From the IMG/VR virus record IMGVR_UViG_3300035520_000607, positions 59,604 to 123,603 of that record: DNA of 64,000 nt. One strand, 5' to 3'. Both the position numbers and the translations under genes were made by a program. The DNA is from a virus (lineage: Duplodnaviria > Caudoviricetes). The first letter of the stretch is position 1, and each line of letters begins with the position of its first letter. The notes under the pieces are model-generated. The model was not told the origin of the DNA. It did not search any database and saw nothing but the letters and a program-made list of their open reading frames with translations. Below are positions 20,187 to 54,998 of this stretch, piece by piece.

Positions 20187-20188
20187 TA

Positions 20189-29700: not shown

Positions 29701-30772
29701 TAATATTATAATCGTTTAAACATTCCCAGCCTAAGCCGCCATATCTATTATATTTTAAACTTGATGTATTAATTTTATTATTTTCTTTAAACCAATAATA
29801 TTTAGTAAGACCAATACTATCATCTATAACATCATTATTTATTCTAGTTTGGGCTTGAATTTTTCTAGTTGCGGAAATAGTATCATTATCATCAAAATAA
29901 ATACCTTGAGGAGTAATTAATGTTAATGCATTACCTGCAATCTCCTCATCAGAAAGAGCCTCTGCCGCTTCTAATATAATATCTCTAAAGAAAATATCTT
30001 TTTCAGTTATATTTTCATCACTATTAGGGAAGTTATAACCATAAGCATAAATTTTACTAATTTCTTTAAAATTCTCTCCATCAATTTCAAATACCACTTT
30101 TTGCTCTGTGAAGTTTGAAAAATTATATGGATTTCCTTTCATTTGATTAATATTTACTAAATAAGTTCTTAAAACGTCCTCTCCTGTGTTATTATCAGAA
30201 AAAATTAAGTCAAAAGCTAAACCATAATCTCCTTTATATTGTTGCTCTTGTTTTAAATTAGTTTTAAAACTAGCTCCGCAAATTAAATAATCAGATTGTT
30301 GTAAATATGCGGCAACCGCAAACTCGTTTATATTAATTAGTGCATTTTCTTTATCTTGTTGATCAAATAAAACTATGGCATCTCCACCTGGAGTATAAGA
30401 ACATAAACCAAACTCCGCATCTGATGTAATAGTATTATTTCCAATTACTTCATATCCATCTGAACTTTCAATAATATTAACATAATCAATACCTAATTTA
30501 TCAACAGTACCAATAATTGTTTTTGTCTGTGACATGTCATTTCCAGGTACAAGAACGTAAACCGACGTTCCCGCAGTATAAGTAACTGAAGTATCTGCTG
30601 CATAAGCATAGAATGAACTATCTTGATATTTTACTACATATTTACCAAGACTTTTATCTGAACATTTTGATATAACGCCTTTAATAGTCTTATCATAATT
30701 AGCTTTAGATACAGCATTCTCAACTATAGTTTGAATAGCATCTAATATTTTATTTTCATAGTTGTTACTCAT
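23765..30772 (-). CDS. Large tail tip/host-specificity protein, 2335 aa (5 TGA=Trp)
   Basis: Five track ORFs share one frame and gaps are open except TGA; e.g. APE*TDGKYMWQKT; follows tape measure. Confidence 0.85.
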
Positions 30773-30871
30773 TCCTTTTCATCTCCTTTTTTCTCTCATC
30801 TTATAGTATTTCATTTTTTACTTTTTCTAATTAAACATTTTAGACCAATAAAAAAAGAGAGATAGTTAATA

Positions 30872-33800: not shown

Positions 33801-36800
33801 TTCTCTAATTTTTCATTAACTTCTTGATATCTATCTGCCGTTTCATCAGAAGTATTATAAGACTTACTTGATCCGCTAGAAGAAGATGAACTTTTTTTAC
33901 TAGAAGTTTTTGGTGTATAATTAAAATTATTAGCTTTTTTTAATGATGTAATTTGAGGAACGACCATGTCTGTAGAAGTTGTTCATTTTACATTTTCTGG
34001 TAAAACCTTTTTCCCAAGAACTTTATTAATAGAACTTGCTCCAGGAATTGCTATACTATGAGTTTCTGTTTGAGTAATTGGGGTCATAGTAACTTCTGCA
34101 TCATATCCAATACTATCAAAATAACTTTGAATTTCTTGAGCGCTTAATCCTGATTTTTGAACGAATTCATTAATTGCGCTTAAAGCTTCTGTATCATCAA
34201 AAGTTGCTCCAATTTCTAAATCTTTAGTTTGATCAATTATGTCTTCTATATCTGAATTAAATTTATTAATTAAATTAGTTTTTTCCTCATCTGTCAATTC
34301 AATATTTCATTCTAGATCTAAATCGTCTAATTGATCAGTGGCTAATATTTTTTGGAATTCTACTAAAGCATCTTTATCTCCATTAATTGCTGCTTGTATG
34401 GTTTTAAAATTTTCTTGCAATGTCTTAAGAGGAACATTAACTCCAAAAGTATCTTCAATGGTAGTTTGAAGTTTTTGAGCAGCTTGTCTAGCTTCTGAAG
34501 ACATTTTTGTATAATCGTCTCCAGCATTATACCATTCTTCTAAAGCATCTTCACTATCATTAATAGAATCTGCTAATGTGTCCATTTTATTAGAGAATTT
34601 TGCTGCTTCTACGGCATATTTCGCTAACTCTTTTTCAGATAACTTAGCCCCCTCTTCAGTTAATGAGAACATTCTTGCAATATCTTTTAATCCTGCTACT
34701 GTCTCACCTGTAGCTTCTGCGCCCTCAGAATAAATATTTTCTATTTCATCTTGAAGATTTTTTTCAGCTTTTTCAGTGTCATAATCTTGAATACCTTTTA
34801 TAAATTCTTCTGCACTACTTAATCCTAATTGATTAAAAACTTCTTTAATTTTATCTTCATCTAAATTTTGTAATTCTAAAATATCTTCTGAAGTAAAATC
34901 AGAAAGAACTAAATTACCTTTTTTGTCTATTTTAGTTGCTCCTATTTTATCAGCTAGATCTTTAGAGACTCCTAAAGTATTTTGAATTGAAGATACTATA
35001 CTTTCTGCTTCTGTTGTTATATCGTCAATAGATTTAGGAGTGGCTCCTTCTATCGCTTTATCTCATCTTTCATTGTGTTCATCATCAGAAAAATAACTAT
35101 ATTTTTTTAATGAATAAGTTCCTTGGGCAATTGCATTAGCGATTGTTTTGGACATTGCATCGGCATCAAAAGTTTCTCCATTATAAGTATATTTTCTATC
35201 TTTGTCATTACCACTTACTTTAGTGAATAACGATGCGTCTCAAGTTCCACCACTTGCTTCAACATAGTTTCTCATGAAAGTGATAGCGTCTACATCTTTT
35301 GTACTACTACTCCATTCAACTCCAGCCTTTTCTGCCTCTCTAATTGATTTAGCAATACTATCCTCATCAACTTCTTCATTTCATAATCTTGTCGCTGTTT
35401 CTCCACTTGCTGTTATAGCTGTAGGAGTTAAAAGTGTTTCAATATTATTAACTTCTGTTTCAAGTTCAGAAATATTTTCATCTGTTGAATCAAAAGTTCC
35501 TTGCATATCTTTAAAAGCAAATTTAAAATTACGAAGATATTCTTCATATGTATCAAATTGAGTATCATCATAATAGTTTTTAGCTATTCTTTCTAATTGT
35601 TGAGAATACTCGTCAGCAGTTAAATTAGCTAAAGATCTTTGATCATCTATACTTAATGAGAAAGTAACTTTATCATAGTTTTCTCCATTTCAAACTGTTA
35701 TTTGTTTTGTGTTATTATTATAAAGTTTCTTTTCTTGAGCTTCTAATAAAGATTTTTGAGCAACAAGAGCTGCAGATTCCTGCATTTCAGATTGTGCAGT
35801 CAATTTTTCTATGTATTCATTATAGATATTTTTATCTATAGATAATTGGCCAGAAGTCCTCTTAATTAAACCGTTTATTTTTAATAATTCTGGATTATTT
35901 TGAACTATTTCTAGAACAGATTGATTAACGTTTTGTAAAGCTTCATTCCATGCTTCTGTCCCTTTAATACAGCTATTTAAAGTTGTTAGATATTCTTCAT
36001 ATTGATCAAAAGAAGATTGTAATGTTGTTAAACTATCTTTTGTTTTCTCTGCTGCTTCACTTAAAGAGTCATAAGCATTTTGTAAACTCTCAATTTCTTT
36101 TTCTTCTTCTGATTTATAATTTTTCATTGCAGTAGTCGCTACCGCAATAACTCCAACTAAAGTGGTCAAAGCAACAATCATTGCGGTAATTGGATTAGAT
36201 AGCAAACTTGCTGTAAAAGCTTCATTAGCTGCGGTAGCCGCCTCTGTTGCTACAGTATCGGCTTCTGTTACAGCTATATCTGCAGTTTTTGTCGCTATAT
36301 CTGCTTTAATAACACCAGCTTCTGTTAAACGCGCAGTAATACTCTTCTCAGTAACTCCATAGCCAAGTTCTTTAGCAGCATTTATCGCTATCTCTGCAGC
36401 AGCTTCTTCAGTAGCTCCTTCTGCTAAAGCTTTTTTAGCTGTAGCTTCTGCATAATCTAAAACAATATTTTTAGCTTGCGATGCATTGTAAGCTTCACTT
36501 GAAACCTTTAAAGCATCAATAACACTTTTTATAGGATAATATAAAGAAACTAATGTTGTAAGAGTTTGAATTAGAGCTTCTCCTACAGTAACATCACCTT
36601 CAAGAAAATCACTTCAAATTGAAGATAAAGAACTCATTCCTGACCAAGCAGAAGATAATGCTGTAACTGACGTTGTTAAAGTATTAACAGCATTAATTAC
36701 TGGAGAAACTTTTTCTGCATCTCCTAAAATTTGATCAATATTTATATTCACTGTTTTTGCTTTAGATCTATTTTGCTCTGCTTTTTCAGTATTTGCTATA

Positions 36801-39028
36801 TATTCATTAGATTTTTTATTTAAAGTTTCAATCTGCTTTAATTCTTCTTTATAAGGCTTTTTTCGTTCTTCTAATTCCTCATTTGATTCTTTTAAAAGTT
36901 GTTTATTTTTTTCGTTTAATTCATTTTGCTCTTTAAGATTTTTTATTTCTTGTTCGTCTAATTCAATACCATCTTTTTTCTTACTAGTTATTGATTGTTC
37001 ATTTAATTTAATCTCTTTTAAAAGACTAGATATTTCTTTCTTATTTATTTTTATTTCTTCATCAAGCCCTGCAATAGCGTCTTCTCTAAGTTTTCCTATG
37101 TCACCAAGTGCTCCTGAAACATCTTCAGCAATAGTATTAGCTTCCCAGTCTAATTTTTCTCAAATCTCTAAATCTTCTTCATTAAAAACTGAATTAAAAT
37201 TTGTCTCTGCATATTTATTAAATGCTGTTTGAACGCCTTTTTTACCTTGATCTTCTAATAAAGCTGCTTGAGTTTCTAACTCAGTTACTTCATTTTGTAA
37301 ATCTATGACTCTTCTAGCATCTTGTTCATTTAATTGATTATAAACATTTTTTAATCTTTCTGCAGTATTAATTTGTTTTTCTAAATTCTCTCTTTCAGCT
37401 TTCTGAATAGTAGTTTCATCTTTGCTTTCTGAGCTTCCTACATTAATAAAATCTCTTTGGGTTTTTAAAACACTTAAATTTTGTTTCGCAAGATTAGTAT
37501 TATTAATTCATCTTGTTAAAGATTGATTTATTTGTTTTTGAAAAACATTTACAAACATTGCTGAAAAACCAGCTAATGATTTTAATCCCCCTCCAAAAGC
37601 ATCACTCATCTTTGTAATTCCTTCAATAACTTGAGTAATAGCATCTATCATAGGATTAATTTCTTTAGTATCAAATAAACTACTATATAAACTTTGAGCT
37701 GAGGCTTTTAGAGTATTCAAATGAGCTTCTGTACTTTCTAAATAAATTTCATTTTGTTCATTTAATTCTCCAGTAGCATTTGCAGCTACTTCTAAATTAT
37801 CTTTAAAAGTATCATAATTAGCCATTAAAGCTACTAATTGAGTATATTGACGAGTACCTGCGACCGCTTGAGCTAATGCAGTTTGTTGATCAGATGATAA
37901 GGTTTTCCACTTTTCACCCATCTCATCTAAGATATCATTCATATCTTTTAACTCGCCATTCTCATCTTTAATACTAATGCCAACTTTTTCAAGAGCTTGA
38001 GAATAAGTTCCTAAAGTTGTACCGTCGTCAAGAGTTTCTCCTAATTCTAGATCTTGTATACGAGCAAATAATGTCTTAAATGCTGTACCTACTGTATCTG
38101 CACTTTGACGAGTTTGAGCAACTACTGTCGCTAATGCGGCAGTTGCATAATCATAACTTAAACCAACTGTTTCTGCAACAGACGCGAATTTCTCAAGACC
38201 TTCAGCAATTTCTGAAGAACTAGATGCGGTTGCCGCACCTAATGCAGTAATAACATCTGCATAATGCTCCAATGTCTCAGATCCATCTGCAAAGTTATTC
38301 CAAATTGCTGTCATATAACTTGATACATCTTCTGCACTATCTTTAGTTACGTTTGCCATTTTAATTGTAATATCAGTCATTTGTTGAACCTTATCTGTAT
38401 CAAGACCTTGTTGATAATAAATTAACGCGGCATCTGTATAATCTAGAGTTGTCGCTCCTAAAGCTTTAGCTGCACTATTTGCGCTTTTAGCAAAAGCTTC
38501 CATTTGACTCGTATTTTGCTTAGATACTACTCTAATACTATTTAAAGATTCATCTAAATCTAATACATAATTATAAGCTTTTTGAACTGCTCCAGTAAGA
38601 TTATTAAAAACACTTGAAGAAATACCAAATCTTATAGTATTAGCCATTGTAATAGCCATCTTATCCATCAAGGTAGAAGTTTGCTTTAATTGAATATTAG
38701 CACTCATAACTGAAGAAGCTAACAAATTAAAAGCTTGACTATTCCCAGTGGCTTCTAAAGTTGATTTTAAACTATTAGCAGTTAATCCTGCTTCAGACAA
38801 ACCTCTCGTAAACTTTGTCATATCTAATTGATTTAATTTTGTATCATAACTTTGATTTAAAATATCTATTAGCTTTTCTGCCGCAGCTCCTGCTTGTTTT
38901 AATTCAGTAGTTGCATTGCTAAAAAGAGATTTATCTTGAATTGTATTTAATTCACGTTTTAATTGTTCAAGAGTATCTTTCTTGAGATCGAATTCAACGC
39001 CAATTTTTATAGTCTTATTCGTTGCCAT
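30872..39028 (-). CDS. Tail tape measure protein, about 2718 aa (about a dozen TGA=Trp)
   Basis: Seven track ORFs in one frame; TP901-like TMP domain at N-terminus (VGTAFKTLFARI, AGTRQ), long helical region, C-terminal YDTGGYTG...LLHQKELVLN; most but not every gap codon read by eye. Confidence 0.88.
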
Positions 39029-40841: not shown

Positions 40842-41792
40842 TTAAGCTATTTCGTCTTCTTCACTTGTAGTTGATTCACCAGTTATTTCAGTTGAATCAT
40901 TTTTAGTTGCTTCAATGTCGATTCCAGCTTCATGAGTCATTACACTCTTACTAGTCTCAGAACCTGCAGTAGCATCTTCTACAACTTGGATAACACATAA
41001 TACTTGTTTAGTATTATCGAATAAAGTATATCCAGGGAATGCATCCATAGTGAATGTAAATGTAGAAGGATCTCCTGTAGAAGCCATTGAGAATGTAAAG
41101 TTAGATTGAATTTTTACCTTTGGTAATGTAATTTCAGCAGGCATATCTACGCCGTCTGATTCACGTCTAAATAATGTAGAAGCTTCAACATAATAATAAC
41201 CAGCAAAGTTATTAGCATCGATTTGAAGTTCAGATACATTTTTAGAAGCTTTAGTTACATAGAAATCAACAAATACTGATTTACCAGCAGCACTTGTTCC
41301 ACCAGTAATAGATTTACCATCTTCAGAAACAGTTAAACCATCAACTAATTCTCCTGTAATAGAACCATCTGTTTCAGTAATCATTACAAATACTGGAGCA
41401 GTTGCATCAATTTCTTCATTTGTTCCTAAACTATCTTTTAAATTAATTTTACCATTGTTATCTACAGATGCAGAAGCAGTAGTATGAACATGAACAGTTT
41501 CAGTTTCAGATTTAAATAATCCAGCTCCTGATAATACTGAGAATCCAATTGGAGATAATAGAGCATCTTCAACTGTGAAAGTTAAAGTTTTTTCACCTTC
41601 CCATGCGATTAATCTATTATTACCTTTACCACCTTGAGCATATACAGTTGTAGCTGCTCCTTCAATAGTAGAAGTTTTTGCACTATCAATATATAAAACT
41701 GGTTGTCCTTCTTTGAAAGTTGATGTTCCAATTTTAGTATCAGCTTTTGCTTTAAATACTACGTCACAAATTTCACGTACGCCAAATTTCAT
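40842..41792 (-). CDS. Major tail tube protein
   Basis: MKFGVREICDV, AQGGKGN.RLIAWEGEK, GDPSTFTFTMDA; position upstream of tape measure. Confidence 0.75.
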   Translation of the reverse strand: MKFGVREICDVVFKAKADTKIGTSTFKEGQPVLYIDSAKTSTIEGAATTVYAQGGKGNNRLIAWEGEKTLTFTVEDALLSPIGFSVLSGAGLFKSETETVHVHTTASASVDNNGKINLKDSLGTNEEIDATAPVFVMITETDGSITGELVDGLTVSEDGKSITGGTSAAGKSVFVDFYVTKASKNVSELQIDANNFAGYYYVEASTLFRRESDGVDMPAEITLPKVKIQSNFTFSMASTGDPSTFTFTMDAFPGYTLFDNTKQVLCVIQVVEDATAGSETSKSVMTHEAGIDIEATKNDSTEITGESTTSEEDEIA

Positions 41793-41819
41793 ATTATTTT
41801 TCCTCCTTTAAAAGTTTAA

Positions 41820-42572
41820 TTAAGAGTTAGAATGAATGTCTTTCATCCAGTCCTCTGGGTCCTTTATGTCTTTTGCACCAGCCATTTTAGCCTCAATATA
41901 AATCTCATAACTTGTTTTCAATTCATATCTTTTTATTTGATCAAATAATTGATAGACTGTATAGTCTAAAATTGTATTTAAATCAATTTTTGTTCCGATA
42001 GCTAAAATAGATACATATCTACTAATAATATCAACCTTTTGATTTTCATTACCTTTTACTTCAGCAAGTTTTTGATGTCTTTTCTTTAACTTATCCGCTA
42101 TGCGGGAAGCCATTGCACCATCAGGATTGAAATCTGTATTTTCATCTTTCTCTCCAAAAGTAAACATTGCTCTAATAATTTTTTTAAAAGCTTCAAAATT
42201 GTCTTTATTAATATAATGTATATCTTTATCATTATCTTCTTTTGTTAATTTTATACAATCTTTTCCAAGATCAATAGTATAACAAGGGAATAATAAGGCT
42301 AGCAACATCATTACGCAATTCCTATTTTTTTGCATTACCGCATTACGCTCTTTTAGTATTGCTATTAATATATCAAAATCCGCTAGCTCCTCTAAATTAA
42401 CTTTGTCCTCTTCTGTTAAAAGATTTTTAGAAAAGTTTAACATTTGATATCCCGCGAAGAAATTCTCTTCGCCAAGATATGCAATTTCTTTTATACGCGG
42501 ATGATGAATATTTAATTGAGCTTCCTCAAAAGGAATGTCATTTCCAGACAAGAGTAATAAATCACTAATCAT
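41820..42572 (-). CDS. Hypothetical tail-module protein
   Basis: 250-aa ORF; YTVYQLFDQIKR C-terminal motif. Confidence 0.65.
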   Translation of the reverse strand: MISDLLLLSGNDIPFEEAQLNIHHPRIKEIAYLGEENFFAGYQMLNFSKNLLTEEDKVNLEELADFDILIAILKERNAVMQKNRNCVMMLLALLFPCYTIDLGKDCIKLTKEDNDKDIHYINKDNFEAFKKIIRAMFTFGEKDENTDFNPDGAMASRIADKLKKRHQKLAEVKGNENQKVDIISRYVSILAIGTKIDLNTILDYTVYQLFDQIKRYELKTSYEIYIEAKMAGAKDIKDPEDWMKDIHSNS

Positions 42573-42573
42573 A

Positions 42574-43161
42574 TTACTCTATTGGCGGTAATTTATCATC
42601 ATTTCCATGAATAGCTCTATAAGAAAGAGTATAGCCAGATAGATCTTCATTTAAAACTAATTCGCTACATCCTAGAAAATCAAGAGTTCCAATACCTGAT
42701 AACTTTGCATGATTTAATAATCCATCAATATATCCTGCAATTTTAATAGGTCTAACTCTATAATTCCCGATATCCCAATAATCAGTATGGCAAATAATGT
42801 CAAATGTTATAGTACAATCGCGGTAATAGGGATTAGAATCATTTGTAGTAAAGTTATCCATTGTAACAATAATATAACTTTTTACTTCTTCATGTTCTGG
42901 AAAATTAATTTTTGGAATTAATTTAATATATCCCTCTTGAATTAGTTTTGCTAAACTTGTTTCTTCAATAATTTTATTTATTGTTTCGCTCTCTTCATTA
43001 TCTAAACAATCTTTTGTGTTGATTACCAATAATCTTTTTAGTAGATCGCTATAAGGCTTACTTTCTATAAATAACCTTCTTAATATTGTTTCAACATCTT
43101 TTTCGCAAGATAAGAAAGATGAACGAAAATCACTTGCTGGTAACAAAACATTACGTTTCAT
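42574..43161 (-). CDS. Putative tail terminator/neck protein
   Basis: ITFDIICH..W, RP..IAG.ID, GYTLSY; position. Confidence 0.55.
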   Translation of the reverse strand: MKRNVLLPASDFRSSFLSCEKDVETILRRLFIESKPYSDLLKRLLVINTKDCLDNEESETINKIIEETSLAKLIQEGYIKLIPKINFPEHEEVKSYIIVTMDNFTTNDSNPYYRDCTITFDIICHTDYWDIGNYRVRPIKIAGYIDGLLNHAKLSGIGTLDFLGCSELVLNEDLSGYTLSYRAIHGNDDKLPPIE

Positions 43162-43183
43162 ATTATCTATCTCCTTTTATTTC

Positions 43184-44149
43184 CTATAAAGAGCTAATAG
43201 TAACTGGAAGAATTATATCTTCTGAGCCACTTCTATAGATTAGATTAAATTTTCCGCTCTTTCCTGTATTTATATAAACTTTAACACTATCGCTATCTTG
43301 ACTAAGTATGTCTACTTTTTCATTATCTACTACCCAGAACCCATCAGTAGCATTAGCAATAGTATAAGTAATTGTATCATATGGATAAATAACAAAAGGT
43401 CCATCTATGTGTGCGGATTCCTCGTCTATAGGATCGGATATCGGCATCTCCGCAGCTACTTCTTCCTCTATTGTATTTTGATAATATTCTTTTAAACAAA
43501 CTACAATAATACCATCCGCACTTATTGAATCTGAAGTTTGGATTTCATAAGGTTTGTTATTTATTTTTATAATACTAAATCTATGAAAATATGCTAAAGT
43601 ATTTTCATCTTTTGTAATATACATTGTTAATGTATCATTTAAAGCATTCCAATCTATATTACTAACTTTTAACCAATCTATTTTATCCGTAGAATTTTTA
43701 TAGACTGGAACCGCATAACTCACACCATTTATTTCAACAGTATAATTACATCTGCGGATTTCCGCTCTAAAATAAGCGATTTCTTCTATTTTTTGTAAAT
43801 AGACTAATCATTGAGTATTATTTTCCTTCCAAGTAATTACATCTCCAGCTTTCACTCCAATTGTTTCAACATCTCTTGAAGTTTTATCTAAATTAATTCC
43901 TTCTTCTTTATTCACACGAATGTCCTCAAAAGGAATAGATAATATTTTATCTTCATTACTAATTTTTAATTTATCTGGATTGATTAAGCATAGAAATTCG
44001 CGGCCATCTGCCAAGACTGCGGTAGCCGCTTGATAGGAATATAATAATGCCTTTTTTAAACTCTTTAATTTACTACTATTCATTCGAGCAACTTGATTTT
44101 GTCCGCCCATATAATTTAAACGAGTTCTCATATTCTCTAGCCCTGACAT
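43184..44149 (-). CDS. Putative head-closure/neck protein, 321 aa (1 TGA=Trp)
   Basis: GDVITWKENNTQ*LVYLQ joins two track ORFs. Confidence 0.65.
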
Positions 44150-44151
44150 AA

Positions 44152-44478
44152 CTATTCCTCCGTCTCTTCTATTACTTTTTTAATATCTTGAATAAGATTT
44201 AAGCATTCAAATATTGTTCTTCGATATAAAAAGAAGTCTCCTTCTTCTGTTAGATCAAAAAGACCTTCTAATTTGCATATCAAAGAGAATAATTTTTCTT
44301 GGTAATTTCCTAATAATTTAGTCATTCCGCCTAATTCTTCAATAATAGTAGTTAATGGAGTTTGCCAATCTAAATTTTCTTCTCTATTTGGTAATAATTT
44401 ATAAGTTTGACTTATTAATCTCTTTAAATTATTAGAGATGGCGGAAACGCCTATTTCGATATTATTGTCTAGTAGCAT
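44152..44478 (-). CDS. Hypothetical protein
   Basis: Likely start MLLDNN after GGGAGG; track start 44583 overlaps upstream gene too far. Confidence 0.6.
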   Translation of the reverse strand: MLLDNNIEIGVSAISNNLKRLISQTYKLLPNREENLDWQTPLTTIIEELGGMTKLLGNYQEKLFSLICKLEGLFDLTEEGDFFLYRRTIFECLNLIQDIKKVIEETEE

Positions 44479-45025
44479 TGGAAGACCCTCCCATGATAGA
44501 CTCGAAAGTAGAGCGTTTAATTCCTTTCTCATCAGATATTCTACGTTTGTATAGTCTTTGTAAATGAAAACCTTCTCTTTCATAATCTTTTTTAAGTGAT
44601 AATAATTTTGACATATGATTAGCTTGAGATGTGAATTTAAAGTCAGATCCGCTATATTTCATTCTAGTATTTTCAACACTAGCTAATTGTTGACCTAACC
44701 ACTCAACTATCATGTATGTAGATAAAATATTTATTTCTTCTTGAGTAAGCGCAGTGTTAAAGCAACCTCCGCTATGATAATAAACTTTAACTTCTTCATT
44801 ATCGCTTTCAACGCCTTTATAAGTACCTTCATCCTCTATATAACTAAGTTCATAGTCTTCTATATCAAAACGCGGAAATTCAAACTTGTAGATTGCTGTT
44901 AATAATAATTCTTCAAGCATTCTATAAGTATCTAATTCAGTTAATTCCATATACATATCATCAGTTATTTTTGATAGAAAACTATCGTATATCACAGAAA
45001 AAGGTGTAGTAGTTATATTATCCAT
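44462..45025 (-). CDS. Putative head-tail adaptor
   Basis: TPFS.IYD.FL.KITD, L..EEINIL..YM..EW, DFKFTSQANH. Confidence 0.6.
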   Translation of the reverse strand: MDNITTTPFSVIYDSFLSKITDDMYMELTELDTYRMLEELLLTAIYKFEFPRFDIEDYELSYIEDEGTYKGVESDNEEVKVYYHSGGCFNTALTQEEINILSTYMIVEWLGQQLASVENTRMKYSGSDFKFTSQANHMSKLLSLKKDYEREGFHLQRLYKRRISDEKGIKRSTFESIMGGSSNATRQ

Positions 45026-45043
45026 CTTACACCTCCATTACTA

Positions 45044-45643
45044 TTATTTGTTTACAACTTTATATTTAGAATTAGTAATTGTTGTTGAAGTTCTTCTAGT
45101 TGAAGTATCATCTTTAGTAGAAGTGATTGCCGCAGCTCTTCTTTGTTGAGTTTGAGTTGTTTCTTCGCTTCCTTCTTCTTGAGATTCTTTTTCAATTGCT
45201 ATTGCAGAAGTGACATTAAATCCAGTTTTTTCTAATAATGCTTGTCTTTTACTTACATCATTTAATTGTAGTTCAACTGCAAGATCCTTAACAAGATTAA
45301 TAGTTCCTTCTGGAGCAAAATCTAAACAATCTTTAAATTGATCTAAAGTTCCTTCAGTTAATAATGTTCTTATATCTTCTTCAGTATAATAATATTCAGG
45401 TTCAACTTCTCCTATTAATTCTTGAATTAATTCAGGACAGTCTTCAATTACTAAATATTCTTTTAGTATTTTTTCTCCCCCTCTACCTGGAAGATAAACT
45501 AACTTTCTTAATTCTTCAACTGTAACTTCTTTTACTTCTCCGCTTTCAAAAGAACGGTGAAGATTTCCTAAATCTGGAATTGTATATCCAACAGTTCCAT
45601 TATCTCTATTTCTAACTTTTACTATTGTGTTTTTGTCTAACAT
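45044..45643 (-). CDS. Hypothetical head-module protein
   Basis: 199-aa ORF directly after major capsid. Confidence 0.7.
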   Translation of the reverse strand: MLDKNTIVKVRNRDNGTVGYTIPDLGNLHRSFESGEVKEVTVEELRKLVYLPGRGGEKILKEYLVIEDCPELIQELIGEVEPEYYYTEEDIRTLLTEGTLDQFKDCLDFAPEGTINLVKDLAVELQLNDVSKRQALLEKTGFNVTSAIAIEKESQEEGSEETTQTQQRRAAAITSTKDDTSTRRTSTTITNSKYKVVNK

Positions 45644-45770
45644 ATTTAAAACTCCTTTTCTCTCGATTTGATTGTATTAAAAAAATTGGGAGAAGACTTT
45701 CTTATATCGTCTTCATTTGATAAGATCAATATATTTTAATATCTTCTCCCTAAAATAAGTTTATCTAAAA

Positions 45771-46796
45771 TTATTTAGATAATTTAGTGTTTCTATATAC
45801 ACAAATGTTATTAGTAATTAATGTACCAACACCAAGTTTTTTATAAACTTGAACTTCTCTTGAACGATCTTTGTTAACATATTCGTCAACAATTGTTTGT
45901 CCTTCGAAAGCAATTTTAACTGGTTTATCAGCGCCAGTAGGAATAATCCATGCATATTCTGGATTAATAACTTTTTCAGTATTAGTTTCGTCTGTATAAG
46001 ATTGATTTAATACGATTACGTTATGTCCTTTGTAGCTAGCTAAGTAACCATGACTCCATTTTTGGTCTTTCATTGCTTCAGAAACCCATCCTTCACTTGG
46101 AACCATAGTTGCGGCAAATTCATAAGTACAATAAATTGTAGATCTTCCATAAGAATCTGCGATTGCAATTAATTTGTCCATTTCGTCTTCTGAGAATTGA
46201 GCATCAGTATATTTATTTGCTCCTTTTAAGTTATCTGCAGCAGCAATTAAAGATTTTTCAATTTCTAAATAAATAGCGTCATTTAATCCGTCCATAATTA
46301 CTTCTAATACATCAGCAAAATCTACTCTACCATCTAAGAATTCTTCGAATCCGATTTGAGCAGCTCCACCGAATGCTTCAGTAGGGATTTCATAAGTTCT
46401 ACCATCTAGTTTGAATACTTCATAAATACCAGCTAATCCAACTTTAGTAATGAATTGTTTAGCACGTCTTTTAGAAGCAGCAGTAATTCTTTGTGTAAAA
46501 ATAGGTTTGTCACCTTGAGCATAAGTTTTAATTTCAGCAAATTGTCCATATTGTTCTAAAACTCTTTGAGGTAGAACATCATCAACAACTTCTTCGATTA
46601 ATGAGAAAATAACATTTTTGTTTTCTCTATATAAACTATAAGTTCCTGCTAATTCTTTTAATTCACTTCTTAATGTTTCATTTAATTCAGAGTAACTAAA
46701 TTTATCGTCTCCGAAAGAGTAAGCAACTTGAGAAGTAGATTTTGCGTTAGCAGTTATTTTAGCTAATTTAACTAAATCAGTGTTATTTAATGCCAT
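45771..46796 (-). CDS. Major capsid protein
   Basis: 341 aa, canonical order portal-protease/scaffold-decoration-capsid, strongly biased codons, strong stem-loop downstream. Confidence 0.8.
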   Translation of the reverse strand: MALNNTDLVKLAKITANAKSTSQVAYSFGDDKFSYSELNETLRSELKELAGTYSLYRENKNVIFSLIEEVVDDVLPQRVLEQYGQFAEIKTYAQGDKPIFTQRITAASKRRAKQFITKVGLAGIYEVFKLDGRTYEIPTEAFGGAAQIGFEEFLDGRVDFADVLEVIMDGLNDAIYLEIEKSLIAAADNLKGANKYTDAQFSEDEMDKLIAIADSYGRSTIYCTYEFAATMVPSEGWVSEAMKDQKWSHGYLASYKGHNVIVLNQSYTDETNTEKVINPEYAWIIPTGADKPVKIAFEGQTIVDEYVNKDRSREVQVYKKLGVGTLITNNICVYRNTKLSK

Positions 46797-46815
46797 AATT
46801 TTTTTCCTCCTCTAA

Positions 46816-47304
46816 TTATTTAATTCTTTGGATTTTTACAGCAGCTTGTCCGTCAGCTAATGTATAAATTTTAGCTACTTGCCATAACATGTCAGCATCT
46901 TCTGTAGTTTTTGCTAAGATTCCATCTTCACCTGGAGTTAATTTGTCTCCTGCTACGATGTCTTCTTCTTTAATCATGTTAGTTGTGTAAATATCTCCTA
47001 TATTTGTTTTGAATACTCTTGGAACTATAACTCCATCAACAGAATCAGATGCTAACATAGCGAAATCACTATAAGTTTGTTTTCTGTCATCGTATAATTT
47101 GATTTCATTGAAAACTAACATCCATTCTCCTGCACCAGTTAAGTTTACTTCATTATTAGCATAGTCATATTTAACGAATTGACCATTTTCAAGGATTTTA
47201 ATATCACTATTAGCTGGTAATTGAGCATAGATTTGAGCAGTTCTTTGAGCAGATAAATGATTAGGTTCAACTTGTCCGTAACCTGTTCTTTTAATTTGAC
47301 TCAT
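46816..47304 (-). CDS. Capsid decoration/cement protein
   Basis: 162 aa between scaffold and capsid; GYGQVEPN, ENGQF, GDIYTTN. Confidence 0.65.
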   Translation of the reverse strand: MSQIKRTGYGQVEPNHLSAQRTAQIYAQLPANSDIKILENGQFVKYDYANNEVNLTGAGEWMLVFNEIKLYDDRKQTYSDFAMLASDSVDGVIVPRVFKTNIGDIYTTNMIKEEDIVAGDKLTPGEDGILAKTTEDADMLWQVAKIYTLADGQAAVKIQRIK

Positions 47305-47324
47305 ATTGAATATCCTCCTTATTA

Positions 47325-48719
47325 TTATTTTCTACTATCTCTAGTATGTCTTAATGCGGCAATATATCCAGGAACATCTGTTCCTTCATTAGTATTAATG
47401 TTATAAGTTACAACATCTGTATCCGCATTTTCTTCTTTTTTAGAAGTTTCATCTAAATTGAAGTTTACTTTCTTTCTTACACAAATAACAGAAAGTTTAG
47501 CTTCAATATCTTCTAATGAATAACTTGATTTATTTGCAATGACATCTGCTTTATCTTCATCAGACAACATATAGAAACTATTAATTAAAGTATCTTTCTT
47601 TTCATCTTCAATTTGATTTTTAAATTCAACTAAAGCTTGATACTTAGTTTCAAGATCTGAGTATTCTGCTTGCAACTTTTCATAATTAGTTTCTAATAAA
47701 GAATATTTATCTTCTTCTTCTTCTTTATCATCTTCTGAGTCTTCAGGATCTTCATTATCAGATTCTTTATCTTCGTCTTCTTCTTTTTTTGCAAAAGTTT
47801 CTTGACTAGATTCAACTTCTATAGAATTATCATTATCTGCTAAAGCAGATTGATCTTCATTGTCCACTTCATTAGAAATTTCTTCTTCTGTTTTTTCTTC
47901 TTCTTCAACTGTTTCAACAGCTTCAGTAGTTTCTTCTTCAACAGGAGTTTCTAATGTAGTTTCTTCTTCGACAACTTCAGTTTCTTGAATTGTTTCAGTT
48001 TGTTCTATATCCATTTTTTGTCCTCCTTCTAATGCAAATTTTAGATCTTGCATCATAGTGTACAATGTTCTTTTGAAATCATTATCTATTTTAGAGAATG
48101 TGTTGCTTACTTCTGGTGCGGTAATGCTTGAGCCTTCAAAGCAAGGTTCAACATCTTCACCTAAAATACATAATTTTGAAAATATCGCATCATTTATAAT
48201 GAAAAAATCCATACCTGTTTTGCTATCTGTTGACCAATGTCCATTTAAATTTTCTTCATCTAATTCCATAGATTGAGGTTTACCCTCTTCAATAACAGAT
48301 TTACACTCTTCGTATTGACCTGTCCACAAATAACCAGTAGTCATTAAATATTCTCTAGTAGTGACATTACCAAATTCGTCTGTATCATCAAATTTTTGAA
48401 ACCAAACTTTTGCATCTGGTGCAACGAATCCATAAGGTTTTGTCATACATTCAAACTTAACGCCTTCATCATCAAAAATGATTTTTTCTCCATGATCGGC
48501 AAAATCTTCTTTCTCTTCTTTGTAGTATCCAACAATTGGAGCTCCTCTAAGAGTTTTCGCCATCTCAGTAGCTACATCTTTTGTAATATAACTATGGTTT
48601 CTATTTTCACCTAGGTATAAGACTTTTATTTCACAGCTACTCATTAGCGGATTAATTTCTAGCGGTTGTAAATTAATAAACTCAGGAGAATCAATTGTCG
48701 CAATTGATTGATGCATCAT
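47325..48719 (-). CDS. Prohead protease/scaffold fusion
   Basis: N-terminal NRN.S.I, PIVG, H, QSME, LCILG..VEPCFE; long acidic coiled-coil C-terminus. Confidence 0.78.
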   Translation of the reverse strand: MMHQSIATIDSPEFINLQPLEINPLMSSCEIKVLYLGENRNHSYITKDVATEMAKTLRGAPIVGYYKEEKEDFADHGEKIIFDDEGVKFECMTKPYGFVAPDAKVWFQKFDDTDEFGNVTTREYLMTTGYLWTGQYEECKSVIEEGKPQSMELDEENLNGHWSTDSKTGMDFFIINDAIFSKLCILGEDVEPCFEGSSITAPEVSNTFSKIDNDFKRTLYTMMQDLKFALEGGQKMDIEQTETIQETEVVEEETTLETPVEEETTEAVETVEEEEKTEEEISNEVDNEDQSALADNDNSIEVESSQETFAKKEEDEDKESDNEDPEDSEDDKEEEEDKYSLLETNYEKLQAEYSDLETKYQALVEFKNQIEDEKKDTLINSFYMLSDEDKADVIANKSSYSLEDIEAKLSVICVRKKVNFNLDETSKKEENADTDVVTYNINTNEGTDVPGYIAALRHTRDSRK

Positions 48720-48812
48720 GTGTCATCTTTTCCTTTCTTTATAATTTTCTTCCACTTACATTATAATATAATAATTCGTGGTTTTCTATTATTTACTTTT
48801 GTCCTATTTTTA

Positions 48813-50426
48813 TTAACTTTGAGATTCTCTATTTTGCAAAGTTTTTTCTGAAACTGGTTCGCCTTGTGATTCATTAGTAGGTCTTCCTGCTTCAGAATCA
48901 TTTCCGCTTATTTCCCCATGTCTTTCCTTACGGTTTTGGTTAGCTTGTTCAATAGCTGCCGCATTCATTGTACTAGACATCATAGGTGGAATAAATACAT
49001 TAGCTAAGTCTAATATATCATTTTCAAAATATGCATTTGCAAGAATAGAATTTTGAGATTGACCAAGTGCAATTTGTGGTAACATTTTTGAGAAACCTAT
49101 TTGCATTTGTTCTTTATACAATTTAGCCATATCTTTATAATTATAGATAGTCGTTGTTAATATTTGCGCTCTATAATAATATTTTTTGGCTTGATTATTA
49201 AATTTATTTAATAAAAGATTTAAAAAATCTTGAAATTGAAGTAACAAATTATACATTGCCGCCTCATCATTTAAAATAGATTTCTCAAGAGCTATATTTC
49301 CATCAGTATTAAATTGCATTTGTGAAACACCGGCTTCATTATAGATAGCGCGTTCCACTCTTTCAAGATCATCTGAACTAGATGATGATCTATCATCTGA
49401 CATATCCGCAACTTGAACATCTGCAAAAGTAGTTAAGACGTCAATACCAATAGCTTTACCTAGCATATTTACCGCATTATTATGAAGAGCTTGCGCTTCA
49501 TCTACGTCAAATACTAAGTCGCCATTTTTATCAACTGGCATTTTTTGAATTATTATTTTTAATAATTCTTGTTGCATTTTTTTCTTATCTAAACCTTTTG
49601 CTTCATCTAAATCTATAATTGCGGGAATAACAGATATAAATGCTGGAAAGTCTTCTCCATTTAAATTAAATTTAATAACATTCTCAGTTTCTAGTAAATA
49701 CCAACCAGTAGTATCCCCCGCAAATTGAGCAGGTAATTTGCCTTCTTTGTAAAGGACATAACCTTTTTTAAATTCATTAGGGAATAAATTTAACATTTTT
49801 AATCTTTGAGTAGTATCTTTAAAATAGTCATCAAAGAATCTCATATTAAATTCAACAGCTGGACGATTATTTACTGTAAATCTTGAACGACAGTAATTAC
49901 ATGGTAATTCTTGAACTGTCATTTTGTTTGCCTTAGGAATAAGATAACCATAATAACATCCATTCCTAACAACTTTTAATGCAACCTCTCCAAAGAATTG
50001 TTTAGGTTCAAAATTGTCTAAGTAAAGTAACACATCATAAAATCTTTCTAAAGCTTTACTTTCTATCTTTTCAGTCTCGTCTAAGATATAGGGAGTTACC
50101 ATCCAGTCATATTTATATAAATATGCCATATATCTACATAGACGAGAATAAATTCCGCTAGTTTTGTAAAAGAAGTTAGATATTTCTCTCATTTGAGAAT
50201 AATTACAAGTGTTAATAGCTTTTAAAACTTCTTGTTTATCTCCTAACCTTGGATCAATTTTTTTATAAGAGCTTACATTAAGAGTAGCATCTTCCAAAGT
50301 TTTTGCACCAACTTTAATTTTACTAAAGTCAGCCTCTAAAGGACCTACCGTTCTTTCGGTGTCATTCATAGTTATAGAAAAACCTTTTTTCTTAATCTCT
50401 TCTTTTCTGTTTATCAAAATCGACAC
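48813..50426 (-). CDS. Portal protein
   Basis: 537 aa between terminase and protease; AGVSQ..FN, acidic GRP tail; TTGACA-N17-TATACT promoter at about 50451-50479. Confidence 0.78.
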   Translation of the reverse strand: MSILINRKEEIKKKGFSITMNDTERTVGPLEADFSKIKVGAKTLEDATLNVSSYKKIDPRLGDKQEVLKAINTCNYSQMREISNFFYKTSGIYSRLCRYMAYLYKYDWMVTPYILDETEKIESKALERFYDVLLYLDNFEPKQFFGEVALKVVRNGCYYGYLIPKANKMTVQELPCNYCRSRFTVNNRPAVEFNMRFFDDYFKDTTQRLKMLNLFPNEFKKGYVLYKEGKLPAQFAGDTTGWYLLETENVIKFNLNGEDFPAFISVIPAIIDLDEAKGLDKKKMQQELLKIIIQKMPVDKNGDLVFDVDEAQALHNNAVNMLGKAIGIDVLTTFADVQVADMSDDRSSSSSDDLERVERAIYNEAGVSQMQFNTDGNIALEKSILNDEAAMYNLLLQFQDFLNLLLNKFNNQAKKYYYRAQILTTTIYNYKDMAKLYKEQMQIGFSKMLPQIALGQSQNSILANAYFENDILDLANVFIPPMMSSTMNAAAIEQANQNRKERHGEISGNDSEAGRPTNESQGEPVSEKTLQNRESQS

Positions 50427-50493
50427 CTCACCTTTCTTCTTTACTCTTTAAGTATATCATAAAATTTTAGGTTTGTCAAATTTAATTAAATTA

Positions 50494-50862
50494 TTAATAA
50501 CCACCTAAAGCATAATATGCATTCATAATATAATCATAATTAACTCTTCCTTCATCTGTATAAGGAATCGCAATTAAAATAAGATTATGTCTTTTACAAT
50601 ATTCTCTCTTTTTCATATCATTAAATTGTTGTTTTCTCAATCCAGTGTATCCACCAAATTTACTTTTTGCTTCATAATGTTGAACTCCTTGGTATTCTAT
50701 TAAAAAACTCAGTTCTCCATCATCATCAAAAACAGCAAAATCAAATCTGAGCGGGCGCCCGCTAGAACTAACCAAATCAGGAAAACTGTATTCTTCTTGA
50801 AATTCAAAACCAGCTTGTTGAAGAATTTCTTCTATTTTTATTTCTCCACGACTTGCTCTCAT
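50494..50862 (-). CDS. PD-(D/E)XK/Vsr-like endonuclease domain protein
   Basis: SRGE..I...L, LRFDF, IEYQG.QHY, D..KREYC....L..IPY. Confidence 0.8.
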   Translation of the reverse strand: MRASRGEIKIEEILQQAGFEFQEEYSFPDLVSSSGRPLRFDFAVFDDDGELSFLIEYQGVQHYEAKSKFGGYTGLRKQQFNDMKKREYCKRHNLILIAIPYTDEGRVNYDYIMNAYYALGGY

Positions 50863-50969
50863 TCTTTCGCCTCCAATCAGCTAAGACATGATATTTTAAA
50901 ATATTTTTTAAATATTTCTATTGTTATTTTAAATTACTTTTAGCCAAATAAAACAGCTTTGGCCAAAGA

Positions 50970-52715
50970 CTAACTAAAAAACATCATGTCTGCGATACTA
51001 TGTTTCTTTCTCTTCTTTCTTCTATCATCTTCTTGTTTAATATAATATAATCCATATTCAAAAGCAGAAAATTTATCTTTTTTGATTGCTCTTGAAGATT
51101 GCTTTAAAATAATATTTACACCTTCATTTTCTTCTACTAAATTCATCATTTGCTCTTTTAAAATAGTAGTTAAAGTAAATGGAAGTAAATATTCTGCTCT
51201 CTTATCTGCAGTCATACTTTGCCCCATCTTAGTAGCCATTAATTTTACTTTAGCTTGATTTTCATCAATTAAGAATTTAATTTTTCCACTTGAAAGTTGA
51301 GATTGTGCATAAGTATGAGCCTCAGTATTTATTGGCGCATTAGCTTTTATTAAATACATAGCGTCTAATTCAGTATTAGCAGTTTTAAATTGTTTAAACT
51401 CTTGTTCCCAACCTTCATAAGTAGCGCCGCACACTCCAAAATTAGGTAAAACTTCTCCAGATTCAGGATCTATTTGATCAGTTACCATAAAATCTACTAA
51501 TCCACTACCTAAACCATTGGCATCTATAACAACAGCTTTAGCCTTGTATCTATAAAATAATTTTTTAATATTTAAAGCTTGAATACCAAAATGCTCAGCA
51601 TCTCAAGTATAAATATTAACAAGAGTCTTCAATGAGGATCCTTGAGCTTGCGGAGTTACTTTAAATACACAACACTCTGTAGTACAATCTTTACGTCCTA
51701 CATCGACTCCAAGAACATAATAAGCTCCTTGAGAGGATCTTCCGCTATATTCATATTCTGGTTGTAATAACACTCTATGTTTATCAAATTTTTCAGCTGA
51801 GAAGAAAGCGTTTTCCGCATCTCCGCTTCATTCAGATTCATACTCTCTTGAAAATGAAGCATCATTATAAGTACCATCTAATTTTAAATTAGTAATAAAG
51901 TTTTTAGGTTGTAAGCCTTCAAGAACTGGAATTCTCCAAGTTCCGCCTAATACAATAGCCTCATTAGGGTCTATTATTTGTTGAATAAGTATTTGAACTA
52001 ATTTACTGTATGCAAAACTATTTTTCCAACCTGCAGTAGTAATGTAAATTTGACTTTTATTAGCTACTTCTTCTTCATGTCTTGTTCCATCTGAAAGTCT
52101 TCTATCTACAACCATTGTTGGTATGATAACTTCGTTCAATAGTGTTTGATCTATTAAGATACACTCTTCCATTAAACCCCCAGTTGCACGTTTACCACGA
52201 GATGATTGTTGTGCGGCCATGATATCTAATTTACTACCATTCTTAAATAAATATTCAACTTCATTTTTTGAAGATTTAGAAGCACCTCTTGTTCAGTCAA
52301 TTTCATTTTTTAAACCAGGAATTAATTTACATAACTCTTCTGCTTTTTCTTTTGCTATTCCCGCAGCTTGCTCTTTTCCACCTGTTGTTACGAAGAAATG
52401 TGAACCTGGGTATAATATACATTTAAGCATTAAAACTAATACAGATAAGAATGATTTAGAATAACCACGAGGAAACGTAGCATAAATATATCTATGACGC
52501 ATTGCCGCCCTTAAAAATATTCTTTGATATGAATGTAAATGGAAATTCTCTGGATTATCTCCGCATAGAAATTCAACAAAAATATCTGGATATTCCCTTC
52601 AAAAAGCCACGTAATTTCTTAATACAGGTATTTGCGCCTTAATACGTTCTTCTGATAATCCAGTCTTCTTATTGGTTGAAGATAAAGACAATTCCATTAA
52701 ATTAGCTAAGGACAT
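50970..52715 (-). CDS. terL: Terminase large subunit, 581 aa (TGA=Trp at 52599, 52293, 51828, 51603)
   Basis: AF*REYPD, Walker A PRGYSKS, RGKRA..GLMEE, YITTAG, REYESE*, RNaseH-like VLGVDVGR, IDANGLG, KDKFSAF. Confidence 0.92.
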
Positions 52716-53910
52716 TTTCTTCATCCTCTTTTCTTTGCTCTTCTACACTAGCATAAAATTCTTCATAATCTTTATCTACAAGTTGATCCTCATCCATCTC
52801 TTCAAGAGACATATCATCTGTTTCACCCATCTCTTTTTGAATTTGAATCTTCTTTAAGGCATCTTCTATTTGTTGACCAAAACCTAAATCTTCTGTAACT
52901 AATTTATTAACATAAGTATTCATATCTTTTAAAGTTAAATCGATTTTATCTTGAGGAATATCTGTTGCATATCTAGGGATAAATCCTTCTCTCTCACACA
53001 TAGCAACTAATTCTCCAACAGAGTCTACAAAATCATTCTTTTGCTCTTTGTTTTGAGCGGCAGTAAACTTTGCGGATTTTCTTAGTGATTCAGACACTTT
53101 AGATAATTTTTGATAGCCTTCAATATCTCCATTGTCAAGACATTGATTCATTTTTAAATTAGTTTTACAAATTAATATTAAAGTATTAGTAGTATCCGCA
53201 TCTTGAATATCAAAAGAATTAGTCATATTAGTATAATCTTTCTCTAGCATAATCCATTCGTCAGGTTTATACATAGCTCCCCACTTCATAGCTAAAGAAA
53301 TTTTATCTTCTTGAGTAAGTTCGCTTATTAAATCATTCATTTGATTTTGAACAATTATTGTGCTCTCATTATAATATTTATCTTGCGGAAATGCTTGTCC
53401 TTGATTTAAAACTCTAGATATACCTATTTCCGCATTTTGCGTTTCCGCACTTATTAAAGTTTTATATTCAGCTTCGCCTATTTCTCCATTTTCATACTTT
53501 TGTTTAATCTCTTCTTCAAAAGCAACTCTCTCTTCAGTTTGAGCTACTTGAGTTTTCTTTCTTTGTTCATTTAGGCGATCAGTATCTGCCCAACCATATT
53601 GTTTTCCAGTAACTTTATCTCTAAACTGATTTAATTTCATTTTAGAAAGGTATTTTCCAAAGACAGAAGTTCCATTTAAATTAGGATTTTTAGCAAAAGC
53701 TTTATCTCTTATTGAGTTCCATTCTTCAGGAAGATAAGGGACATCCATTTTTTCTAATAACCATAAAAATGTATTAGGATCAAAATTATCAATGTGCATT
53801 GTCAAACAGTTTTTACACATCTCAGTTTTGTCTCCATTTTTATAAGTGTAAAATTTGGTATCCGCATCCATCATTCTTCCACATTTTTGACATAATTTTT
53901 GTTCTGCCAT
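52702..53910 (-). CDS. Zn-finger protein upstream of terL (terminase small subunit candidate)
   Basis: CQKC...CKNC N-terminus; overlaps terL start. Confidence 0.55.
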   Translation of the reverse strand: MAEQKLCQKCGRMMDADTKFYTYKNGDKTEMCKNCLTMHIDNFDPNTFLWLLEKMDVPYLPEEWNSIRDKAFAKNPNLNGTSVFGKYLSKMKLNQFRDKVTGKQYGWADTDRLNEQRKKTQVAQTEERVAFEEEIKQKYENGEIGEAEYKTLISAETQNAEIGISRVLNQGQAFPQDKYYNESTIIVQNQMNDLISELTQEDKISLAMKWGAMYKPDEWIMLEKDYTNMTNSFDIQDADTTNTLILICKTNLKMNQCLDNGDIEGYQKLSKVSESLRKSAKFTAAQNKEQKNDFVDSVGELVAMCEREGFIPRYATDIPQDKIDLTLKDMNTYVNKLVTEDLGFGQQIEDALKKIQIQKEMGETDDMSLEEMDEDQLVDKDYEEFYASVEEQRKEDEENVLS

Positions 53911-53927
53911 TTTCCGCTACCTCCTTA

Positions 53928-54998
53928 CTATTTTTTATTTCTACATTCTTTACAAATGCTATACCAGCCATCTTTTGATGTACTATTCTTTGAAAAGAAA
54001 CGATTAGTAGCCAATTTTACTTTTCCGCATCTAGAGCATTGTTTCCAATTTCCTTTTTCTTTATAAGTAAAATGCCAATCTAAATAATCTTCTTTTGCTT
54101 GTTCCGCAAGTAATTTAGGTATTTTATTTCTCCATAATGATGATAAATATTCAACAGAGTGTCTAACTCCAAATTCTCTATCTAATAGATCTTGGATTTC
54201 CGCATTAGAACGTCCATCAGTTTTATAAAGCAATAACTTATAATAAAGCGGATATGCTTCTTTTAAAGTCTCTTCAATTAAATTATCTAAATCTAACATT
54301 GTGTAATATAAATCACTGCTAAATTTTCCATAAGAGTCTTCTTTTAATGCCGCATAATTACGCAATAGCGCAGAAATATGAGTCCAATTAAAAAATGATA
54401 TAATGCCATCGCTAATTGGCTCACCAAATTCATTTATTTCTATATGTTCAGTTAAATCTACTTTTGATAATCCTTTAAAAGGATTTCCAGTAGGGTTAGA
54501 TGTTAAAGGTTGTTTTATTGTATTTTTTATAGTATATTGTTCTTGATGCATTTCTATTAGTTGTTTTTTTAATAAAAAACGCTTTTTACCTGTTGCTTTT
54601 TGTTCCATTTTCTCAACTGCGGAAATACTATCCTTTAAAGCGCGAAGGTCTGCCATTGCCGCCAAATCCGCATCTGTAATTGATACCTTAGGAGTTAAAA
54701 GTACATTTTTATCATTTATTATTAAATTATATATTCCATCTTCGCCATTCTCAAATTTACTTACTAATCCTTGATATGAAGTTTCTCTTTTATTTATTGT
54801 TATCATTCTATTGTCTGTAATAATCTCTTTTTTCTTTTTCTCTTCAGGAGTCATTGCAGTTACAATATAATTTGCTAGATATTCTAAATATTTTTTATTT
54901 TTAAATTGTTCTTGTGGTAAGTTAGATACAAAATCAGCTCTTTCTTTTGCTGTCTTTAATGTAAAATCTAATTTTATATTTATAGATTCTTGTTGCAT
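53928..54998 (-). CDS. Hypothetical protein with HTH-like segment and C-terminal CxxC Zn finger
   Basis: GRSNAEIQDLL HTH-like; CSRC...CKEC. Confidence 0.65.
   Translation of the reverse strand: MQQESINIKLDFTLKTAKERADFVSNLPQEQFKNKKYLEYLANYIVTAMTPEEKKKKEIITDNRMITINKRETSYQGLVSKFENGEDGIYNLIINDKNVLLTPKVSITDADLAAMADLRALKDSISAVEKMEQKATGKKRFLLKKQLIEMHQEQYTIKNTIKQPLTSNPTGNPFKGLSKVDLTEHIEINEFGEPISDGIISFFNWTHISALLRNYAALKEDSYGKFSSDLYYTMLDLDNLIEETLKEAYPLYYKLLLYKTDGRSNAEIQDLLDREFGVRHSVEYLSSLWRNKIPKLLAEQAKEDYLDWHFTYKEKGNWKQCSRCGKVKLATNRFFSKNSTSKDGWYSICKECRNKK

Follow-up and report, generated by a model that had tools for sequence, protein, structure and literature searches.

Phages that translate a stop codon as an amino acid have been described as carrying recoded late genes together with their own suppressor tRNAs, and a switch of the genetic code in the middle of infection is presumed (Borges et al., bioRxiv 10.1101/2021.08.26.457843; phAss-1 group, PMC10607447). 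In both texts “structural and lysis genes” form a single recoded block, the lysis genes being the most biased, and neither mentions capsid genes avoiding the recoded codon; the phAss-1 paper further states that the family contains TAG recoders and lists the large terminase (TerL) and the tape measure protein (TMP) as recoded, the major capsid protein (MCP) not being listed. In Blastocrithidia, in-frame reassigned stops are depleted in highly expressed genes, which was read as a translational burden (PMC12153298), and Lucks et al. 2008 (PMC2266997) report that capsid and tail genes have the strongest codon adaptation. The subject here is the late operon of a phage recorded as IMGVR_UViG_3300035520_000607 in IMG/VR, within a window of 64,000 nt (positions 59,604 to 123,603 of that record), in which TGA is read as tryptophan (Trp). 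In this phage and in about 50 recoded relatives the genes for MCP, capsid decoration protein and tail tube remain nearly free of the recoded codon, be it TGA or TAG, and this probably reflects selection against a codon that would be costly to decode in the proteins made in the largest amounts.

The window is the final part of one 123.6-kb contig (GC content, 30%; CheckV completeness, 83%). The phage is a member of the SPbeta/YonB-type family, which comprises large siphoviruses of gut Bacillota; it is related to large siphoviruses of Bacillota grouped around SPbeta, Enterococcus EF1/H1 and Geobacillus E3, and also to the TAG-recoded gut phage phAss-1, the MCP of which is 50% identical to that of the window. 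Positions given below refer to the window, unless “genome” indicates the whole contig.

Exclusion of the recoded codon from MCP, decoration and tail tube genes

The genes on which the comparison centers are the following; for this genome, counts per gene are written TGA/TGG and were taken from open reading frames (ORFs) called under code 4.

45771..46796, minus strand: major capsid protein (YonB family), 0/3
46816..47304, minus strand: capsid decoration/cement protein, 0/2
40842..41792, minus strand: tail tube (major tail) protein, 0/1
47325..48719 (true coding sequence), minus strand: scaffold/prohead protein (phrog_3313, Glu/Lys-rich), 0/3
48813..50426, minus strand: portal (phrog_2739), 0/2
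50970..52724, minus strand: TerL, 4/3, with TGA at Trp or aromatic columns

The MCP is identified by annotated MCPs in Bacillus phage relatives and by Atlas clusters (PF27364 YonB, score 0.99). The model of the decoration protein (pLDDT 77) best matches small accessory chains of the Sf11, T1, Pam3 and FCWL1 capsids (TM 0.45–0.6, with a weak E of ~0.02), and for the model of the tail tube (pLDDT 62) the top Foldseek matches are tail tube proteins (8xkn, 9jgi, the SPR entry 8ygm, and YSD1; E 3e-8). By sequence, MCP and tube had no matches among PDB chains, and most head genes had none in Pfam.

Relatives were collected by an MCP-anchored scan of IMG/VR, which gave 80 loci with 10 kb of flank per side. 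The code of each was called from in-frame stops in orthologues (18 loci clearly TGA-recoded, three TAG-recoded, the rest standard), orthologues were aligned codon by codon, and dereplication left 13 TGA genomes, the window itself being left out. In these 13 genomes no TGA is present among the 98 Trp codons of the MCP (0 of 47), decoration (0 of 16), tube (0 of 11) and scaffold (0 of 24) genes; when codon labels are shuffled within genomes, 31.8 +/- 4.0 are expected, and in 100,000 such shuffles the number was never below 16. Three further TGA contigs likewise have no TGA in the protected genes, versus 27/16, 16/28 and 19/44 TGA/TGG overall. Other head genes of the same 13 relatives carry the codon freely: the portal has 7 TGA and 21 TGG, and the two Zn-ribbon genes have 25 TGA/23 TGG and 47 TGA/31 TGG (about 50–60% TGA). 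On a portal and MCP tree, parsimony requires 27 changes between TGG and TGA at the 6 Trp sites of TerL, 19 at 8 and 33 at 9 sites of the Zn-ribbon genes, and 28 at 8 sites of the gene at 43184-44149; the corresponding numbers are one change at 5 sites of MCP and none at the 3 sites of the decoration gene or the single site of the tube gene.

The same three genes stand out where TAG is the recoded codon. A scan of GTDB genomes yielded 42 additional family members, present as phage contigs inside bins of metagenome-assembled genomes (MAGs), and many of them recode TAG heavily. In 24 relatives that read TAG as Gln, phAss-1 included, TAG accounts for 2 of 302 Gln-coding positions in MCP, 4 of 229 in the decoration gene and 1 of 146 in the tube gene, together 7 of 677, versus 1112 of 3682 (30%) elsewhere (Fisher p=4e-83, with lineages that are not independent). 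The other late genes of these phages have 19–49% TAG (portal, 30%; TerL, 33%; scaffold, 19%). When 122 MCP sequences are placed on a tree, its well-supported branches require the TGA label to change three or more times and the TAG label five or more times; the exclusion has accordingly been kept up, or set up anew, across several transitions of the code.

For the window itself, the minus-strand block 5008-54998 has the order of a classical siphovirus late operon: two Zn-ribbon genes, TerL, HNH nuclease, portal, scaffold-like protein, decoration, MCP, connectors, tail tube and two small genes, then the 2718-aa tape measure, followed by tail-tip, fibre and leucine-rich repeat (LRR) genes. The members not listed above, together with a RuvC-like gene, are:

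52702..54998, minus strand: two Zn-ribbon proteins (phrog_3314; phrog_5767, “sigma factor”-like), 0/5 each
50494-50862, between TerL and portal: HNH nuclease without Trp codons, found in 78 of 80 IMG/VR relatives
30872..39028, minus strand: TMP (PF10145), 12/18
5008..30814, minus strand: tail tip, fibre and LRR genes, mixed TGA/TGG
21148-23748, minus strand: tail-region gene, 7/10
12097-13623, minus strand: LRR/DUF285 gene, 5/2
8764-11523, minus strand: tail-region gene, 6/2
7032-8666, minus strand: tail-region gene, 0/7
2025-2531: RuvC-like gene, 1/2

An initial annotation of the window had divided these genes into virion genes without TGA and assembly and lysis genes rich in it. Its counts for TerL, TMP, 21148-23748 and the RuvC-like gene agree with those given here, and the 28 Trp codons of the virion genes it listed are all TGG once one TGA is set aside: the scaffold ORF at 47325-48755 counts 1/3, and its TGA is ORF codon 11 (48725-48723), between the ribosome binding site and the ATG. 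The start of the protein is conserved, with the N-terminus MHQSIATIDSPEF in all relatives; the TGA thus lies in the 5′ leader and the true coding sequence has 0/3. The LRR gene at 12097-13623, said to use TGA only, has two TGG as well.

Taken by itself, this genome is only suggestive of a partition. Its 34 late genes have 54 TGA and 111 TGG in total, and a single binomial rate, named in the initial annotation as the outcome that would speak against its claim, is rejected, modestly, by a permutation test of heterogeneity (p=0.013). The class drawn up in that annotation, chosen post hoc, gives 1/28 versus 53/83 for the rest (Fisher p=6e-5), whereas a high-copy class defined a priori (MCP, decoration, scaffold and tube) gives 1/9 versus 53/102, with p=0.17. 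Each gene has 1–7 Trp codons, so that several genes would be expected to lack TGA, and it might be held that chance and post-hoc grouping have produced the appearance of a partition where there is none. This is probably right where the Zn-finger genes, portal and 7032-8666 are concerned, their orthologues carrying TGA freely; as an account of the whole pattern it is hardly credible, being refuted for MCP, decoration and tube by the 0 of 98 (scaffold included) in the TGA relatives and the 7 of 677 in the TAG relatives. The TGA-free state of the Zn-finger genes and of 7032-8666 is lineage-specific, their orthologues being TGA-rich; each of the four whole-genome relatives has TGA in its orthologue of 7032-8666 (2/6, 3/3, 6/2 and 2/4 TGA/TGG). 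The idea that the Zn-finger genes are early regulators kept free of TGA was dropped, 47–57% of the Trp codons of the orthologues being TGA. It is the relatives, then, that give the partition its decisive support, and they do so solely for MCP, decoration and tube, plus the scaffold in TGA lineages. The claim that high-copy virion genes avoid TGA stands to this extent and falls for the portal, the Zn-finger genes and 7032-8666.

Codon bias and the probable cost of the recoded codon

MCP, decoration and tube also have the strongest codon bias in the genome. Bias was scored in NNR boxes, that is, codon pairs differing only by A or G in the third position. The window genes for MCP and decoration contain no G-ending NNR codon at all (27/27 AAA, 28/28 GAA, 13/13 CAA) and the tube gene has 2%, versus 10–22% in other late genes; over the window and four whole-genome relatives, the three genes have 0–2% and other genes 10–20%. 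Over 13 genes the share of G-ending codons correlates with the share of TGA (Spearman rho 0.76, p=0.002). Genes which take the A-ending codon in all other NNR boxes thus keep TGG, which argues that TGA specifically is disfavoured. In TAG relatives of higher GC content the three genes are biased in the opposite direction and use almost only CAG; the bias therefore follows the translational optimum of each host, not composition. Signs of a costly codon are present in ordinary late genes as well: TGA is used for just 34% of Trp, versus 88% A-ending codons in the other NNR boxes, and T is the base following an in-frame TGA in 11% of cases, versus 22% after TGG (p=0.001). In E. coli, UGA followed by U is a strong stop context.

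The partition is probably the outcome of expression-dependent purifying selection against a codon that is costly to decode, and not a device for ordering assembly. The phage reads TGA as Trp, presumably by means of its own tRNA(UCA), and in ordinary late genes TGG and TGA would drift freely into each other under AT pressure. Decoding of TGA may be slower or leakier than that of TGG, owing to competition by the host release factor 2 (RF2) and to a limited supply or charging of the suppressor. Each TGA would then cost lost product as well as truncated subunits, which might poison assembly, and this cost would scale with protein output; hence the three proteins of highest copy number, MCP, decoration protein and tail tube (~500 or more copies per virion), would be kept strictly TGG, the scaffold too in TGA lineages, while low-copy proteins would tolerate TGA. 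The expected stoichiometry is several hundred MCP and decoration subunits, given a genome of ~125 kb, and several hundred tube subunits, given a tape measure of 2718 aa, versus 12 for the portal and few for tail-tip proteins; together with the codon bias it suggests that the three genes are the most translated of the late genes. Competition by RF2 is plausible for a phage that has its own tRNA(UCA) and in which no gene for RF1, RF2 or tryptophanyl-tRNA synthetase (TrpRS) was found in the contig (83% complete). TGA occurs in almost every essential late gene of low copy number, so completion of the virion would still depend on the suppressor; this dependence looks like a by-product.

The initial annotation went further and saw in TGA a translational gate, capsids accumulating under the host code from TGA-free genes while packaging, tail and lysis wait for the switch brought about by the suppressor tRNA. 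Such an adaptive gate has a published framework (bioRxiv 10.1101/2021.08.26.457843), and it agrees with several traits of this genome: all procapsid genes (portal, scaffold, decoration and MCP) are TGA-free here, TerL, TMP and most tail genes carry TGA, and the tRNA(UCA) is phage-encoded. In the replication arm the large genes have no TGA and up to 18 TGG each, TGA being limited to small or endonuclease-like ORFs. However, portal and scaffold, both components of the procapsid, are recoded at ordinary rates in relatives (portal, 23% TGA and 30% TAG; scaffold, 19% TAG), and TMP has 12 TGA, yet the tail tube with which it assembles is protected. Among close relatives the TerL gene has from 0 to 6 TGA, two near relatives having none. 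Within genes TGA positions are uniform (Kolmogorov–Smirnov p=0.78), without the 5′ bias that was sought as a sign of gating. Lysis genes, which had been counted among those rich in TGA, do not behave as claimed: the only recognisable endolysin (CHAP + PG_binding_1; genome 32982-33716, in the other arm and outside the window) has 0/5, and none of the TGA-rich genes was identified as a lysis gene. The ORF directly upstream of the endolysin, with one transmembrane segment, has no Trp codons. Further, the suppressor gene is located in an early tRNA cluster and its product may already exist when late transcription begins. A gate is thus an unlikely explanation; of the earlier proposal the costly codon is retained, in line with codon bias and the depletion of T at the following base, and the sequence “capsids first, the rest waits” is not. 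Abundance accounts for the protected set; assembly order does not.

A side observation concerns an ORF of 101 codons (genome 1832-2137, minus strand, outside the window), which has two predicted transmembrane segments, four TGA and no TGG, and matches no family; should the gene be real, it might encode a holin-like protein and be the most TGA-dense of the genome.

Codon selection would not be required if capsid and tube genes had repeatedly been swapped for standard-code copies by recombination, TGA thereby being reset to TGG. The family is mosaic, and on the tree its recoded members are interspersed with standard-code ones. This scenario is nevertheless very improbable: the protected genes are not contiguous, the TGA-bearing stretch 41820-44149 being located between MCP and tube; portal and MCP show one coherent clade structure; the extreme codon bias of the protected genes is tuned to the composition of each lineage; and over 40 recoded genomes have clean MCP, decoration and tube genes. 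A recent import of TGA-free genes from standard-code phages was dismissed too, as the nearest relatives of the individual genes are a mixture of TGA and weakly recoded phages and form no block pattern.

Some observations weigh against selection scaled by expression. The gene at 45044-45643 is intermediate, with 9% TAG in TAG lineages, and the scaffold is clean in TGA lineages yet 19% TAG in TAG lineages; the edge of the protected class is therefore fuzzy. For the tube the evidence leans on the TAG relatives because each TGA genome offers a single tube Trp codon. The pooled p-values overstate independence, given shared ancestry, a kinship that is addressed by the tree-based counts and the multiple code transitions. 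C is depleted after TGA like T, so that the context of the following base fits in part only. Finally, RF2 competition, the copy numbers and codon bias as a proxy of expression are all inferred.

The meaning of TGA and its putative suppressor tRNA

Under code 4, ORFs cover 90% of the sequence versus 81% under code 11, and long genes are restored when TGA is taken as sense. TerL is split in two if TGA is a stop, and its N- and C-terminal halves are matched by PHROGs 15503 and 24618; both families, of “unknown function”, were apparently built from TerL fragments of standard-code records with in-frame stops. The four TGA codons of TerL align to W/F/Y columns in five standard-code phages, one of these columns being invariant W. 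Over 13 head genes aligned to standard-code relatives, W is the majority residue in 27 of 48 TGA columns, followed by Y and F. The alignments show that TGA means tryptophan in this phage. Serine had been suspected because in aragorn's drawing the tRNA(UCA) has a long extra arm resembling that of a tRNA-Ser; it was ruled out, as no TGA column aligned to S.

The gene of this tRNA is located outside the window (genome 14765-14859, minus strand), where it adjoins a tRNA-Trp(CCA) in the early tRNA cluster, and has homologues in the relatives G005 (8971-9066) and G001 (1371-1467). The tRNA, of 95–97 nt, has two tandem anticodon-like hairpins between its D and T arms, the “extra arm” being the second of them; the first loop reads CUUCAAA (UCA) and the second CUCCAAA, which contains CCA, the usual anticodon for Trp. 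In the three phages both loops are conserved and both stems show compensatory changes, and A1-U72 and G73 are shared with tRNA-Trp. One may speculate that the second arm could offer the CCA identity element to TrpRS.

The same cluster contains a match to the OLE RNA (RF01071; genome 16697-16935, minus strand, outside the window; 105.6 bits, E 8e-28, model positions 283–595 of 616), so that the phage carries an OLE-like RNA. A phage tmRNA is located at genome 17793-18232 (minus strand, also outside the window; Rfam 51.8 bits, gathering threshold 47), and aragorn found tmRNAs with tag peptides in two relatives (G005, 987-1411; G001, 714-1153).

Suppressor content is not simply matched to the code. 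In G004, a complete genome with terminal repeat that is heavily TGA-recoded and has 26 tRNAs, aragorn found no tRNA(UCA), and G002 is TGA-recoded yet has a tRNA with the anticodon CUA (amber suppressor type). G005, a near relative, conversely has the dual-arm tRNA(UCA) but scarce TGA: TerL has 0/6 and TMP 0/20 TGA/TGG, and a few TGA are present in four genes. Its recoding may be at an early stage, or the lineage may be reverting. An attempt to find the host through prophages or MAG bins was uninformative, as it gave only phage contigs in assorted Bacillota and other MAGs; the bins holding relatives are labelled Lachnospiraceae, Bacilli and Erysipelotrichaceae and are unreliable as evidence of the host.

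Comparison with known recoded systems

A literature search yielded no publication in which avoidance of the recoded stop is stated for the capsid genes of recoded phages; its coverage was incomplete and absence is unproven. What is described here is a solid, well-replicated refinement of the notion that late structural genes are written in an alternative code, rather than a new mechanism: the bulk structural proteins are exempt, in TGA and in TAG recoders of the family. The pattern argues that decoding of a recoded stop in an infected standard-code cell is costly, and that drift together with selection scaled by expression explains much of the gene-by-gene pattern, for which regulation is not required. 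In practical terms, the genes for MCP, decoration protein and tube of such phages are predicted correctly even under the wrong translation table and are therefore poor indicators of recoding; they are also the natural site for a test of suppression efficiency by synonymous substitution.

Whether stop-recoded tailed phages in general follow a near-absolute rule, according to which the few proteins made in hundreds of copies for each virion remain written in the standard code whichever stop is recoded, is a tentative proposition at best and somewhat doubtful. If it did hold, suppression imposed by a phage would be substantially leaky throughout infection, the termination cost per codon could be estimated from sequence alone, and there would still be room for a real programme that allows the major subunits to be translated ahead of the code switch.

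With the code-switch phages the present one shares its low GC content and gut origin, replication genes compatible with the standard code, in-frame stops in structural genes and a phage-encoded suppressor tRNA; it differs in that its most abundant structural genes escape recoding and its endolysin lacks TGA. The codon adaptation of capsid and tail genes, as treated by Lucks et al. 2008, concerns ordinary synonymous codons, whereas here a recoded stop is affected. The pattern in Blastocrithidia is alike in logic and direction, reassigned stops being distributed non-randomly there as well. In contrast to that case, a eukaryotic nuclear code with a mutated eRF1, the code here is imposed by a virus on a cell with a presumably working release factor, and for three genes the effect comes close to all-or-none.

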